Shown here in pieces: positions 39,001-48,000 of a stretch of 64,000 bases of DNA. The position numbers were made by a program. The stretch's first letter is position 1. The number at the start of each line of letters is the position of its first letter. This DNA is from Spirochaetia bacterium (GTDB taxonomy: Bacteria; Spirochaetota; Spirochaetia; DSM-2461): the NCBI GenBank assembly GCA_963666985.2, contig CAXXIA010000002.1, positions 1,952,001 to 2,016,000 on the forward strand, given 5' to 3'.

Positions 39001-42000
39001 AGGAAACAATACGTCATTTTTCCAGCGGAAATAATTATTGGATGGAGGGATTCGACGAATTGTCTTCCGGAGTATCGAAAATCATGCAAAGACTCGAACC
39101 AAATCTTCTTCCGATCGCCTTATGCACCCGTGTTCGCCGAAAATTCGGAAATTTCAGTCCGGGACGGCTTTATCAGTCCTGCCGATGCGGGCCGATGGCT
39201 TCGGGAAGAACCTCCGTACGGCAGTACCCGGCATAAAAAGATATGGTACGCCGCGAATCCGCCCATATGCCGATTCAATTATCTTGTGCCGATCGTTTGA
39301 GTGAATCGCCGCGTCCCCAATCAACGGTGAGTCCTGCCTGCCGTGCAATGTCATTATAGAGTTCCGGGAGTTCATCCTTGGAAGAGTCTGCGGTAATGCT
39401 TTTTTTCCCCGGAAAAAGATTGTATTGAGACCTGAACGACTGAGGTGTAAAGCACGGCATAAGAACATTGGCTCCCGCCAGAAGTCCCTCGACGCGATAA
39501 TCCGCGTCCATACTGCCGAGAGCCGTTGTTGTCGGCATCCATGCGCTGCGGGTTAGCAGCCGGGTGAGCGCGATAACACGCAGTGTCAGAGGTACATCCC
39601 CAGCCGGTTCGTTTCGCAGAGGCGTCGCCGGATGGGGAATAAAGGGACCGATTCCGATCATGTCGAAATCAAACTCGTGAAAGTAGGCTATATCATGAGC
39701 GATATGGGATATTGTCTGACCCGGCACGCCGACCATAATGCCGCTCCCCGTTTGGTACCCCAAATCCCGTAAATCCCGGAGCGCTTGAAGCCGAGTTTCT
39801 ACGCTTCGATTTTCATGAAGGGAGGCATAAAGCGATTCATCGACAGCTTCAATACGAAGGAGATAGCGGTCCGCTCCGGCCTCTCTCCACTCGGCATAAT
39901 CGGAGCGCGGCCTTTCTCCCGCGGAGAGTGTTACGGCCATTCCGGTTTCGGTTTTTATTCGTTTGACAACATCTGAGAGCCGAGAGGCCGGCGTGGCGCC
40001 TTCTCCCGACTGAAGCACAACGGTTCGTATTCCCGCATTCGCTATTCGGCGGGCCGCCGCGGCGATATGATCCGCCGACATGTGATATCGCTTTAGTGCC
40101 CGATTCTTTCGGTTCAGACCGCAGTAAAAACATGTGTTGCCGCAGATGTTTGAAAATTCAATAAGTCCACGGATAAGCATCCGCGGTCCGCACGCCTCAT
40201 TCCTCATCTTTCTCGCTTCGGCGAGAAGAATCTCATGTTCCTCCGGGCCCCCCGCCCGCAGCAGAAGTTCTATATCGGATATGGATGGCGGCGGTTTCGG
40301 ATTATTCTGCGAACGGATGCCGCGGATTCGGTCGAGAGCGGCGATATAGTCTTTTCGTATCATGCTCCGACCCGGCTGTTTGTTTTGTTTTCAATGGCAT
40401 GCCTGTAAGCCTCCAGCGCCGCCGGGAACGGCGAAAGAGTCCGTTCAACAACGCCCTGCAGCGTGGAAATCGCAATGCCGTAATTGGTCATGGCAACACC
40501 GGCGGACCGGGCCTGCTCGATACGCCATAACATTTCGCGGCGGGTGAGGGTACATCCTCCGCAGTGAATTATCAGCCGATACCGGGAAAGATCCTCAGGG
40601 TAGTCTTTTCCGGCATAATGATCGATTTCGAGATGAATCCCGGAAAATTGCCGAAGCCATCGGGGAATCTTGACTCGGCCGATATCGTCCGCCAAGGGAT
40701 GATGCGAGCATGCTTCCGAAATGAGAATTCTATCTCCCTCTTTGAGTAAAGACAGCACCGCCGCGCCTTCCGCCAAATAGGAAATGTTCCCTTTATAGCG
40801 GGAGAACAAAATGGAAAAGGTTGTGCACGGAACATTGGACGGGGTGTCAGCGGTCATTTTCAGAACGATTTGCGAATCGCAGACAACCAGATCGGGCGGA
40901 TTCTTCAGGCAGGAGAGGTAGGCCGGGAACTCCCGTTCCTTAACAACGGTTACCGCGGCGTCGCTGTCGAGGGCGTCCCGTATCGACTGTACCTGCGGCA
41001 GTATGAGACGTCCTTTCGGGGCCTGGAGGTCGATCGGTACGATGAGAGCGACCACCGGGAGTCCTTTGCCGACGGGAAGCAGATCTCCCAGAATGGCCGG
41101 AGGGTTAAGAAAATCATCGGGGCATACCGCGATCAGATTTTTTTTCAGTTCCAGAATAATCGTTTCACGGAGATGAGCCGCCTCGGAGGCCGTGCGGCGC
41201 TCATTGGTTACCGAAGTACTTTCCATAATGTAAGAGCTTTTTTTTTCGAGCTCTTCAATCCATGTTTTGCTCGGTTTTTTCAGGTCCGTCTTGTTGATGA
41301 CAAAGATGATTGGAATCTTCCGATCTTTACAGGCTTCAATAATTTTCTCTTCAAAAGGAGTCCATACGTCGCTTTCGAGAATGATTAAAGCCACATCAGA
41401 TGCGGAAAGAGCCATGGTTGTTTTTTCGACGCGAAGAGCACCTAAAGACGATTCATCATCAATTCCCGCGGTATCCAGAAAAACAACGGGACCCAGCGGA
41501 AGCAGTTCCATCGATTTATAAACAACGTCGGTGGTTGTTCCTTCCGTGGAGGAAACAATAGAGGCGGGCTGATCGGCTATTGTATTGAGGAAGCTTGATT
41601 TGCCCGTGTTTGTTCTTCCGAAAATTCCGATATGCAGGCGAAGGGATTTGGGTGTTTTCATCATTGCGGGGTTTCCTTAATCTTGATATCCGAGAGCCGA
41701 AAGCGCCGCCGGAGAAAATGATTTTTCAATAATGCTTCCGTCCAGTTTTTGTTCGAGGAATACGCGGAGAAACGGACGTTCCTCTTTGGGAGTGGAAATG
41801 TACTCCGTAACGAGTTTTGCCGTTTCCGTGTATCCGATATGAGGAATGAGCGCGGTAAGCACCATCGGTTCGCGGTCCAGCAAATCTCCGCAGACCTCCG
41901 GCGATGCGTCGATAAGAACAATGTGGGACCGCAGCATGATGTCGGCATTGCGGAGCAGCTTGAGCGCTTCGATGAACGTATCCGCGATGAGCGGGAGAAA

Positions 42001-45000: not shown

Positions 45001-48000
45001 GGAATCGCATAGCCTTCGGCCGTTGCGAGAAGACGGCAGCCTGCCTCTTTGTTCCGGATAATAAGGCTTGCCGCCTGCAGTGCCGCATCAACTTGGCCGT
45101 CCAGCAGCGCCGCCCGAGACTGCGGAAGACCCATGGAAAAAAATTCGATGTCCGATTCCGTAAGACCTTCCGAGGCCAGGGCCGCGATAAGAATCTGATG
45201 AAGCACCGTTCCTTTGGGACCGGCAACTTTCGCTCCCCGTAATTCGGCAATTGTTTGAGGACCGTTCGGACCCGTCATGATGCCGAAAGTTTTTTGCGGA
45301 CGGCTGAATCCGGATGCGATAAGAACCTGATTCCCCGCGGCATTCGCCAGAACAACCGAAGTACTGTTGATAACGGAGGCAATATCGAGAGAGCCTGCGG
45401 CCATTGCTTCCGCCTGGCGGGCTCCGGAGGTTATTTCGTGCCAGTTAATTGTAATTTCATCGTCTTCAAATTCTTGTTCGAGCAATCCTTGTTCCTTCAT
45501 GATGATGATGGGCAGGTTGAAGGGAGAGGTAACATAGGAAACGTTTATTGCAGTCGGCTTCGGATTTATTTCAGCCCGGCCTGCCGAAACAAAAAGGAAG
45601 AGTGCCGCGGAAACCGTCAGAATGATAAAAATGCCGTTTTTCTTCATGGTAAAGATCCTTCATATCCGCATCTGCGGGATTTTAATTGAGTTAGAGTTTT
45701 GCGAGAGTTGATTTCACCGTGACATCGGGTATCATTCCGATTTTGCCGGTTAAATCTCCGATTTTGTCCGTTGACGCGTCGACGATCAGCGTAATGATAT
45801 TCAGGTTTCTTTCCCGATACGGGAGGCCCAATCGGCCGATAATGATTTCACCGAATTGGGATAATAACGAATTAACTTCGGCTACGGATGAGGCTCTGTT
45901 CTTGACGATAATCGCGATAACTCCTACGGCTTTCTGCATAAGACATCTCCTTTCCGGCAATGGAATCGGAGCGATCGCACAATCGCGTATCGCCATTTTT
46001 CCATGACCAAATGAACCTGAGGGAAAAGGATAATGTGCTTTGATTAGAAAGGTCGCAGAGTATCCGCCCGCCGCAATTCCGCACGCATATTGCGGCCATT
46101 CCGGCATCGTGGATTGATGAGAAACTCAATTACGACCCTCGGCTTCAGACGGTATCCTTACCTCAGGCTGTATGTCGGATTTCTATACCGTTTCTGAGAA
46201 CGGTATGCGAATCGCTGTATTAGCTTTGCAGTATCGGGAAAAAATAGCAAGAAGAAAATCGAATCGGTTCGGTATTTCCCGCATCTTCGACGATTCAATC
46301 CGAAATTCAGAGCATTTAAGTCCGAATCGATCACCGGGGCGGCCTGTTGGATCACGGCAATTTTCTTCAACGGTAATTCCGCACCATGAAATCAAACAGC
46401 ACCGGAATCTACAAATTTATCCGTGAATTACTGAAAAAAGCCGGTGCCCCAAAGACACCGGCTTCAATTCATCTCTTCAATTCATCTCTTCAATTCGTGC
46501 GTCGTATGTCGTACGTCGCACGCGTTATCGGGATTGCTTCCTACACCGTATACGTACTCGCGCTTACATCTCCGCCGGTACCCGTCCAGTTCGTATGGAA
46601 GAACTTGCCACGTGCGGAATCAAGCCTCTCATACGTATGGGCGCCGAAATAGTCGCGCTGTGCCTGAAGCAAGTTCGCCGGGAGCCTCTCTGATCGGTAG
46701 CCGTCGTAGAAAGCCAGAGCCGTCGACATCGCCGGAACAGGAATCCCCAGTTCCACGGCCTTGGCCACGACTCGCCGCCAACCGGCCTGAGCCCGCTCCA
46801 CCGTCTTCTTGAAGTAATCGGCCAGAAGCAGATTGTTCAAGTTCGGATCGACGTCGAAGGCCTTTTTAATCTCGCCCAGGAAGACCGAGCGGATAATGCA
46901 CCCGCCCCGCCACATCAGGGCGATCCCGCCGTAGTTCAGATTCCAGCCGTATTCCTTCGCCGCTTCCCTCATCAGCATATAGCCCTGAGCGTAACTGACA
47001 ATCTTGGAGGCCAGCAGAGCCTGTTCCAGATCGTCCACAAACGCCGCCTTCTTCGCCGCAAGATCCGCCGGGGCCGCCGCACCGGCCGAATCGCCCGCCG
47101 TACAGCCGCCTCCGAAAGAAGCATCCGGTCCGGCCAAAACCTTCGATGCCGCAACCCGCTCGTCCTTCAGGGCGCTCAAACACCGGGCGAACACAGCCTC
47201 GCCGATCAGCGTTACCGGCATGCCCAAATCCAAAGCGCTGATGCCCGTCCACTTGCCCGTACCCTTCTGACCGGCCGTGTCCAGAATCTTCTCCACCAGC
47301 GGCTCTCCGTCCTCGTCCTTGAAGGCCAGAATGTCGCGGGTAATCTCTATCAGATAGGAATCAAGCTCACCCTCATTCCATTTGGCGAACACCTTATGCA
47401 TCTCATCACAGCTCATGCCCAGGCCTTCCTTCATCAGCTGATAGGCCTCGGTAATCAACTGCATATCGCCGTACTCGATTCCGTTGTGCACCATCTTCAC
47501 GTAGTGACCGGCGCCGCCTTCGCCCACCCAGTCGCAGCAGGCCTCCCCGTCGTCGGTTTTGGCCGAAATATCCTGGAGAATCGGCTTCACCAGCGGCCAT
47601 GCCTCCGGAGCGCCGCCGGGCATAATCGACGGCCCCATTCGGGCGCCTTCCTCACCGCCGGACACCCCCGTACCGATATACAGCAGACCCTTCGCTTTGA
47701 GCGTTTCATGCCGGCGAATCGTATCGGGAAAATGCGAATTCCCGCCGTCGATAATCACATCGCCGGGCTGCAGAAGGGGCAGCAGCTTCTCGATCCACTG
47801 ATCCACCACCTCGCCGGCCTTCACCATCATCATCACCTTGCGCGGCGTCGAAAGCTTCCCGACGAATTCCTCAAGCGATTCCGACCCGACAATCGTTTCC
47901 CGTCCGGCCGCGGGTCCGGCCAGAAAATCAGCCGTTCTCTGATACGTGCGGTTGTACACCGCCACCTTATACCCATGATCGTTCATGTTCAGAACCAGAT

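Follow-up and report, generated by a model that had tools for sequence, protein, structure and literature searches.

Assembly of the [FeFe]-hydrogenase active site is considered to require HydG, whose product is regarded as too labile to exist beyond the hand-over from HydG to HydE. The canonical maturation operon has the order TM1266-hydG-hydE-aspA-hydF. The locus described here is typical in that HydE, HydF, TM1266 and an aspA-like gene are all encoded, but the genome has no hydG, and the operon holds an ABC importer instead. The link of aspA to hyd operons has already been published, and the word “transporter” does not occur in the main text of that study of hydE/hydF neighbourhoods (PMC11736057). 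Maturation on an externally supplied HydG product has been described in vitro, where HydE and HydF mature HydA (PMC11256358). That system consists of a test tube and a synthetic compound, syn-B, and a natural organism or transporter is absent from its description in the accessible part of the article. Neither a HydG-less organism nor an importer of an H-cluster precursor was found in a literature search covering few subscription journals.

Among transporters, the sulfonate importers SsuABC and TauABC share their fold and three-gene layout with the genes at this locus and are their best structural matches, but identity is low (about 21-22%), scores stay below the family cut-offs, and relatives of the transporter here carry Fur boxes. 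ThiY (thiamin pyrimidine precursor) and PqqT (PQQ) are cofactor-precursor salvage importers. They belong to the same binding-protein superfamily (3ix1 and 9b1u among the fold matches; 13-16% identity) and likewise place an importer where a biosynthetic enzyme is missing, but the cargo proposed here is an organometallic Fe-CO/CN complex, and a published importer for such a cargo was not found.

Organization of the maturation operon

The window is a 64,000-nucleotide stretch of a Spirochaetia bacterium genome (GCA_963666985.2, contig CAXXIA010000002.1; G000 below). As the first-pass annotation had described, the operon occupies positions 39275..45939 in the order TM1266, binding protein, permease, ATPase, aspA-like gene, hydF and hydE (Table 1). 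All seven genes are tightly packed on one strand, with two overlaps of 4 nt, one of 34 nt and gaps of 10, 12 and 43 nt, and the same operon was found on one contig in a second strain. The first gene scored 105.3 bits against a cut-off of 60.8 for its NCBIfam family, and its ATG is preceded by a purine-rich ribosome-binding site. The binding-protein gene directly follows TM1266, which is the slot held by hydG in hydG-positive spirochaete operons; the TM1266-hydG-hydE order was present in four such loci (L137, L138, L139 and L214). The best family of the aspA-like protein was aspartate ammonia-lyase, with 487.8 bits just short of the cut-off of 510. Such a gene is a usual companion of hyd operons and probably supplies ammonium for the bridging dithiolate (PMC11736057).

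Table 1. Features of the operon and its upstream region (window positions)
Feature	Position	Strand	Family assignment or note
Putative hyd-operon regulator of the TM1266 family, 82 aa, first gene	45691..45939	-	TIGR03959, PF21699
ABC substrate-binding protein, 321 aa, SsuA/TauA fold, uncharacterised subfamily	44682..45647	-	TIGR01728 below cut-off
ABC permease, 264 aa, SsuC/TauC-like	43877..44671	-	PF00528; under SsuC and TauC cut-offs
ABC ATPase, 276 aa, SsuB-like	43080..43910	-	PF00005; NF008420 212, below cut-off 395
Aspartate ammonia-lyase-like protein, 468 aa	41677..43083	-	NF008909
HydF maturation GTPase, 434 aa, intact	40360..41664	-	TIGR03918; GTPase (PF01926), dimer (PF18128) and tetramer (PF18133) domains
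HydE radical SAM maturase, 362 aa	39275..40363	-	TIGR03956
Intergenic region between gnd and the operon, 600 nt, structured stretch	45940..46540	-	fold z -3.0

The fold of the intergenic leader was equally stable in 1 of 100 shuffled sequences. The leader is not conserved in the collected loci and had no homologue among them or elsewhere in G000, and an Rfam scan of positions 38500-47000 gave no match. Neither Rex-like nor Fur-like sites were found upstream of the hyd-linked operons, Fur boxes being absent upstream of the G000 operon and in all eight hyd-linked loci, and a DtxR-like consensus was no more frequent upstream than in shuffled sequences. Some termite-gut-type loci are preceded by a palindrome, which was not considered further. 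An ORF6N gene lies upstream in several of them, and palindromes of this kind in the ORF6N family are coding repeats.

Absence of hydG and retention of the later maturases

The absence of hydG reported in the first-pass annotation was confirmed. The family search returned only a HydE cross-match (E 4.1e-10), and an unfiltered six-frame search of G000 with a profile of 17 HydG rows again gave only HydE, the next match having an E value of 0.08. It is scarcely conceivable that hydG exists and is merely missing from the assemblies. G000 consists of three contigs without terminal overlap, and in one genome (G321) a contig break does hide hydG, but six-frame translation showed no hydG fragment, the single-contig genome G596 has the same pattern, TM1266 is joined directly to hydE with the ABC genes downstream in four loci (G574, G586, G705 and contig L078), and seven of the eight genomes of genus g10 have no hydG. 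The completeness of 93%, which had been raised as a concern, is normal for the genus, whose three single-contig genomes score 92-95%. Searches for another source of CO and CN (HydG, ThiH, HypF) found none; HypF matched in 0 of 10 hydG-less genomes, with positive controls, so that HypF offers no alternative source of cyanide.

HydE and HydF scored 318.9 and 505.2 bits against NCBIfam cut-offs of 254.6 and 325.55, respectively, and HydE has the CX3CX2C motif. All nine of the residues R54, V105, T134, R155, L157, M224, T269, M291 and K309 of Thermotoga maritima HydE, whose synthon-handling roles are given in the accessible part of PMC11826987, are kept in G000 as R65, V116, T145, R166, L168, M235, T280, M302 and K320 (alignment to 5fep, offset 11). 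Against the second strain, hydF showed 15 synonymous and 5 non-synonymous differences (pN/pS 0.11), and judged by these substitutions it is under purifying selection. The corresponding 6 synonymous and 8 non-synonymous differences in hydE (pN/pS 0.44) are small numbers and count against the import reading given below. Between hydG-less genomes, dN/dS of hydE and hydF was 0.06-0.08, or dS was saturated. On quick trees, HydE and HydF of G000 grouped with those of G574 (support 93 and 99), but its binding protein comes from another branch, which indicates that the hyd link outlived a swap of the transporter.

Several [FeFe] hydrogenases had been reported for the genome, and six [FeFe]-domain loci were indeed found. 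At three of these loci the complete set of three H-cluster motifs lies in a single frame, and a fourth locus is split by a frameshift. The earlier argument from retained catalytic subunits did not hold, as 19 of 20 control genomes without hydF, hydG and binding protein also retain them; their retention is therefore uninformative. Such orphan hydrogenases without maturases or importer are common, including in closed genomes of the genus of G000, and some spirochaetes evidently tolerate incomplete maturation or solve it otherwise.

Import of a later precursor, either the di-iron HydE product or a finished 2Fe unit from decayed hydrogenases, is very unlikely. It would suit G146 (94% complete), which has no match to hydE, hydF or hydG and in which genes for two such binding proteins, a permease and an ATPase flank a hydrogenase gene, as well as four more genomes with the binding protein and a hydrogenase domain but no maturases. 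Such a cargo would make HydE superfluous, but G000 retains HydE and its catalytic residues, and HydE scores over the cut-off in all 10 other hydG-less carriers of the binding protein tested, and hydrogenases without maturases are equally common where the transporter is absent.

Binding protein and iron context of its relatives

The structure model of the binding protein (pLDDT 93.7) gave SsuA (2x26, 3ksx) and TauA as best folds, with 20-22% identity. The assignment to the SsuA/TauA class by fold is clear (Foldseek E 6e-23 to 2x26, TM about 0.78-0.79), but the protein scores below the SsuA cut-offs (TIGR01728 139.6 against 163.5; PRK11553 73.1 against 299). The sulfonate contacts of SsuA, Gln36, Gly68, Gly86 and Ser141 in Xanthomonas citri numbering (PMC3839906), correspond in a sequence alignment to V39, G75, I93 and V148, so that only Gly68 is kept; the Ser141 position is less certain, with T147 one residue off. 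Of 84 family rows, 79 have V39 and 64 have V148. No ssuD, ssuE or tauD lies beside the transporter, and a sulfonate-cleaving gene was lacking among 140 neighbouring proteins scanned, a selection of all neighbours.

Copies with 40-52% identity occur on plasmids of E. coli, Azospirillum, Chelatococcus and Rhizobium, hosts that are not known to have [FeFe] enzymes, and the transporter is thus not everywhere dedicated to [FeFe] maturation. Of 16 distinct Sutterellaceae-type loci, 5 have a Fur box upstream, each of these being linked to an FmdE-fold gene, and related loci have heme, siderophore, FecCD and FeoB genes as neighbours. The FmdE-fold partner, the Fur boxes and the iron-uptake neighbours point to a ligand that contains iron. 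In one Sutterellaceae-type group a TauE sulfite-exporter gene adjoins the transporter operon. The FmdE-fold partner was absent from five of five hydG-less and five of five hydG-positive genomes in a search that had no positive control, and is therefore of no use as an indicator of hydG status.

Import of a sulfur or nitrogen source, which the first-pass annotation had allowed for, is weakened by these iron-regulon signals in relatives and by the loss of the SsuA side-chain contacts. More broadly, the genes could encode a general nutrient importer, for an iron chelate or for a sulfonate or other organosulfur compound, beside an operon hungry for iron and sulfur; its tie to hydG loss would then merely reflect a small number of lineages in common, and where hydG is missing, hydE/hydF may make no H-cluster. 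The closest folds and database labels, the TauE neighbours, the hosts unlikely to have [FeFe] enzymes and the frequency of orphan hydrogenases fit such a role, which we nevertheless consider unlikely: long-term purifying selection on hydE and hydF would go unexplained, as would the distribution given below, and the sulfonate version also has the family cut-off, the replaced contacts and the neighbouring genes against it.

Distribution of the transporter and loss of hydG

The earlier counts for the order were reproduced exactly. HydF is encoded in 27 of 38 genomes, and the two of these without hydG both carry the binding protein, compared with 4 of the 25 hydG-positive ones. The association was stronger in larger samples. 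Among 401 spirochaete genomes, 8 of 130 HydF-positive ones had no HydG match; in one of these a contig ends within a fragment of hydG, and another lacks hydE as well. The remaining six genomes with hydE and hydF all carry the binding protein, compared with 10 of 123 hydG-positive ones (Fisher p 1.4e-6, or 8.8e-6 counting the hydF-only genome, kinship being ignored). Over the phylum and order samples together, hydE and hydF without hydG occurred in carriers only (7/7). The class sample added 26 further carriers, 13 of them without hydG. Among 47 carriers with maturase genes, the transporter adjoins hydE or hydF in 9 of 20 hydG-less genomes and in 0 of 27 hydG-positive ones. These nine cases span five families and several gene orders and include G596 (98% complete). 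A single clade of hyd-linked binding proteins was rejected (p-AU 5e-68), with six changes on a quick tree from which metagenome rows, G130 (very long branch) and G586 (frameshifted) had been left out.

An importer of nutrients in general explains neither the adjacency on separate branches only where hydG is missing nor the restriction of hydE and hydF without hydG to carriers. In its favour, five phylogenetically independent pairs, about three of them concordant and none opposite, gave no significant result (sign test p 0.25). The pattern expected of a salvage importer, one biosynthetic step lost with later steps kept, is accordingly seen in the counts and is not significant over the independent pairs. 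HydG is kept in 27 of 53 spirochaete carriers, in 11 of the 20 hydG-less carriers the transporter lies away from hyd genes, and bins broken into 30-360 contigs account for many of the hydG-less carriers. Among metagenome loci, many of them short or redundant, 4 of 80 have hydE or hydF nearby, and a scan of genome contigs with the single protein returned one locus, which is not hyd-linked. One flank of the hydG site of G120 is conserved in G367 and G208, which have no hydG, and the other is rearranged, so that the site allows no clean test of a deletion.

Proposed role of the importer

In our view there is about an even chance that the product of the three ABC genes takes up a small anionic Fe complex already bearing CO and CN, and so replaces HydG here. 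In this reading the cargo would be either the HydG product [Fe(cysteinate)(CO)2(CN)]- or a stabler Fe(CO)x(CN)y(thiolate) adduct from which that product forms by exchange. Of the import reading put forward in the first-pass annotation, the link between transporter and hydG loss is upheld; the substrate is deduced from context, and cross-feeding goes a step further.

The sequence itself provides the starting point, with hydG absent, hydE, hydF, the aspA-like gene and catalytic genes intact and no other CO/CN source found. According to the literature, the substrate of HydE is Fe(CO)2(CN)-cysteinate; syn-B, which persists in water for hours, can take the place of HydG in vitro (PMC11256358). The binding protein would capture the complex in the periplasm, the permease and ATPase would deliver it to HydE, and HydF, AspA and glycine-cleavage chemistry would complete the 2Fe unit. 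The weakest step is the supply; hydG-positive neighbours may release the complex when they leak or lyse or when their cofactor decays. In other hosts, where an FmdE-fold partner and Fur control often accompany it, the subfamily would obtain iron from such complexes. As the distribution suggests, this prior role would allow hydG to be lost repeatedly, the transporter genes then moving next to hydE/hydF.

Against import, complex B is described as unstable (PMC11256358), and it is thought to go straight from HydG to HydE. The instability would be sidestepped by a simpler cargo, an iron-thiolate or iron-cyanide anion or other cyanide donor, from which the cell builds the HydE substrate without HydG, using cysteine and diffusible CO. 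This is compatible with every genomic pattern given above and suits the iron-regulated copies in aerobes. It is nonetheless improbable, as the hyd-linked loci share no assembling enzyme, the ABC genes being their sole extra shared genes, HypF is absent, and spontaneous assembly in cells does not appear in the parts of the literature covered.

Import of the preassembled complex is directly testable because syn-B exists. Somewhat more tentatively, a widespread and previously undescribed ABC subfamily may import environmental Fe carbonyl-cyanide complexes, and anaerobes in several lineages may have dropped HydG and become synthon auxotrophs, so that an organometallic CO/CN metabolite is exchanged between species and serves other bacteria as an iron source. 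If this is true, an organometallic cofactor precursor occurs extracellularly, incomplete maturase sets would be accounted for in some of the many genomes that have them, and a functional importer would offer a way of bringing synthetic precursors of the H-cluster into living cells. Anaerobic communities would then depend in part on cross-feeding for their hydrogen metabolism.

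Operon structure and absence of hydG

The [FeFe]-hydrogenase maturation operon of the genome under study (G000; 4.86 Mb in 3 contigs, 93.1% complete) includes three ABC genes, and its genes overlap slightly or are separated by 10-43 nt. HydE, HydF and TM1266 passed the NCBIfam cut-offs, the aspA-like gene was marginally below its own, and the ABC genes are SsuABC-like, yet below theirs.

Coordinates of features in G000 and in compared genomes (plain numbers count within the window)
Feature	Location	Strand	Remark
Operon TM1266, binding protein, permease, ATPase, aspA-like, hydF, hydE	45939 to 39275	minus	seven genes
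Operon leader	45930-46260		fold more stable than 99 of 100 shuffles
Stretch compared with second strain	39256-46446		117 differences
Putative nickel-pincer-dependent hexonate epimerase	48389-49660		NF052594 above cut-off; adjoins gnd and a HAD protein gene
Additional TM1266 paralogue	G000:C2:2433413		
Additional TM1266 paralogue	G000:C2:2794614		
Group A-like [FeFe]-hydrogenase catalytic gene	G000:C2:2729100-2730879		outside the window; one-base frameshift at short C run between P2 and P3
hydG of a g10 genome (L134)	G120:C2:221318-222727		
FmdE-fold partner gene	L002:10890-11465		no Pfam match

The first-pass annotation had described hydG as missing from this genome. This was borne out by a HydG family search, by tblastn with three HydG proteins and by a profile built from 17 HydG rows and run without filters over six frames, each of which returned only a HydE cross-hit. 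The completeness of 93% is no sign of lost DNA, since three single-contig genomes of the same genus reach 92-95%. The entire operon was also found on a single 12-kb record among the contigs of a second study, in a comparison of two studies of which one is possibly the source. The arrangement is thus no accident of assembly. That the lack of hydG is an assembly artefact is very improbable. The match to the second strain's contig ends just beyond hydE, and a glycosyltransferase/response-regulator block below position 39256 lies outside those runs. The operon leader had no Rfam match and no homologue among the loci compared.

Distribution across Spirochaetota

The phylum sample comprised 401 Spirochaetota genomes with a completeness of 90% or more. 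The binding protein had matches in 22 of them (E up to 1e-30), HydG in 125 and HydF in 130, and HydG went unmatched in eight of the HydF-positive genomes. One of these (G321) carries part of hydG where a contig ends and was reassigned to the hydG-positive side, while another (G385) also lacks hydE. The remaining six (G000, G208, G367, G106, G166 and G176) have HydE above cut-off, and no sign of HydG appeared in them at E values up to 0.001. All six carry the binding protein, compared to 10 of the 123 hydG-positive genomes (Fisher p 1.4e-6, or 8.8e-6 with G385 counted), although these values overstate the association because related genomes are not independent. In a quick tree of binding proteins (55 genome rows), the association with hydG loss was not significant by independent pairs (five on supported branches, about three concordant, none opposite; p 0.25). 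Order-level counts given in the first-pass annotation were reproduced, with the binding protein in 2 of 2 hydG-less and 4 of 25 hydG-positive genomes. G208 holds two HydE paralogues (L144, L153) on separate branches, both above cut-off.

A class sample (401 genomes) yielded 26 new carriers, 24 with HydF and 13 without HydG above cut-off, two of the latter having ThiH-like matches. The 53 carriers in total comprise 27 hydG-positive genomes, 20 that lack hydG but have hydE, hydF or both, and six without any maturase match; the genome-level tests cover Spirochaetota.

Genomic position and phylogeny of the transporter

Neighbourhoods spanned up to ~9.5 kb on each side of the binding-protein gene, some contigs being shorter. 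The distance from the ABC genes to hydE or hydF was ~7 kb or less in 9 of 20 hydG-less carriers and in 0 of 27 hydG-positive ones. In G120 TM1266 alone adjoins the binding-protein gene, and in G166 the adjoining gene is truncated by the contig end. The nine genomes represent five families and show several gene orders, and one of them (G596) is a single contig. The order in hydG-positive operons is TM1266-hydG-hydE. In four hydG-less loci hydE comes directly after TM1266 and is itself followed by the ABC genes; in G000 the ABC genes occupy the slot following TM1266. Among 80 metagenome loci, mostly short or redundant gut contigs, hydE/hydF were near in four and hydG in none across the stretches covered. 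In genus g10 the binding-protein gene is solitary, but all 5 genomes tested have permease and ATPase at other sites. The hydG of G120, solitary and distant from hydE/hydF, is the only one among 8 g10 genomes and was possibly regained by transfer.

Eight hyd-adjacent binding proteins were dispersed on the tree, several as sisters to non-adjacent hydG-positive ones, and a single hyd-adjacent clade was rejected (p-AU 5e-68). HydE and HydF of G000 cluster with those of G574, but the sister group of its binding protein is the pair from G540/G549, which is FmdE-linked and hydG-positive. This suggests that the transporter was exchanged in this lineage while the hyd link persisted.

Conservation of maturases and hydrogenases

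HypF, the cyanide source of NiFe enzymes, was found in none of 10 hydG-less genomes searched. Between hydG-less genomes, dN/dS of hydE and hydF was 0.06-0.08 or dS was saturated, resembling hydG-positive pairs. Relative to the second strain, 15 changes in hydF are synonymous and 5 non-synonymous, with counts of 6 and 8 in hydE; the comparison rests on 40 of 273 differences and spans hydE, hydF and part of aspA. In alignment, HydE of G000 retains equivalents of all nine residues to which PMC11826987 assigns the handling of the synthon and of Fe(I) intermediates.

G000 contains six [FeFe]-domain loci. Three carry the full set of three H-cluster motifs in a single frame, and one is frameshifted by either a sequencing error or pseudogenization. 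Retained catalytic subunits had been counted in favour of the importer. They carry no weight: [FeFe] domains occur in 20 of 20 hydG-less carriers but also in 19 of 20 spirochaete controls without hydF, hydG and binding protein, where catalytic domains are full-length and several genomes closed. Full-length catalytic domains are kept without hydF and hydG in G434-G437, G015, G040, G058, G074 and others.

Ligand of the transporter family

The binding-protein model (pLDDT 93.7) has SsuA and TauA as nearest folds at 20-22% identity. Of the four sulfonate-binding residues of SsuA given in PMC3839906, only Gly68 is retained in sequence alignment, and the positions of Gln36 and Ser141 hold conserved valines. 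A TauE gene adjoins one group of copies and favours sulfur, and thereby a general nutrient importer whose link to hydG loss would be coincidental, a reading we consider rather unlikely. Since pocket columns are similar among hyd-linked, FmdE-linked and other copies, the family likely has one ligand class. Copies at 40-52% identity on plasmids of E. coli, Azospirillum, Chelatococcus and Rhizobium indicate that it is not specific to [FeFe] maturation.

Outside hyd operons, an FmdE-fold partner of 170-200 aa is frequent with the transporter genes (in L002 and about 40 other loci; 349 representatives, E up to 0.001); none of the 13 hyd-adjacent loci has it, nor does G000. In three clusters (P0296, P0427, P0428; one named Anaerospora), a more distant FmdE-type domain forms a fusion with a hydrogenase-like domain; these belong to a different FmdE subgroup and are thus a weak hint. 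Six gut E. coli plasmids, including L244 (NC_011754.1), carry a four- or five-gene cassette (FmdE-like, permease, ATPase, binding protein, FmdE-like), and permease and ATPase share one open reading frame, apparently fused, in Sutterella-type loci L092, L110 and L120.

In 5 of 16 distinct Sutterellaceae-type upstream regions, each of the five FmdE-linked, an E. coli Fur consensus fixed in advance was matched at the shuffle floor; none of the 8 hyd-linked regions had a match. A looser palindrome, picked once these matches were known, was present with 0-1 mismatch in 6 of 6 FmdE-linked regions. Other copies lie next to heme, siderophore, FecCD or FeoB genes, and a site at the Azospirillum copy is similar to Caulobacter Fur sites given in PMC2724300.

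Proposed import of an H-cluster precursor

Import of an anionic iron complex is the simplest account of both the hyd-linked and the iron-linked facts. Sequence data establish the gene content, its distribution and its conservation; binding, transport and cross-feeding are inferences. That this complex supplies the CO and CN of HydG, as the first-pass annotation proposed for the HydG product, has in our judgement an even chance. Synthetic Fe(CO)2(CN)-cysteinate substitutes for HydG in vitro and survives hours in water (PMC11256358), and natural complex B is described as unstable (PMC11256358, PMC8855341, PMC12501116). Import of a simpler iron or cyanide ingredient is, in our judgement, rather unlikely. 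A later di-iron precursor, very unlikely as substrate, is hinted at by G146, which has no match for hydE, hydF or hydG; here (L041), as in G166 (L043/L130), a catalytic hydrogenase gene has on its flanks two divergent binding-protein copies, a permease and an ATPase.

In open-access main texts we found no account of natural maturation without HydG, and none of an H-cluster precursor importer; the neighbourhood tables of PMC11736057 may bear on this. The components fall into families already described, and the salvage of precursors is likewise an established strategy. In iron-limited hosts the imported complex would serve as iron. In a hydG-less anaerobe, the complex would be useful only if it also brought the CO and CN otherwise made by HydG, and maturation would then depend on cross-feeding.
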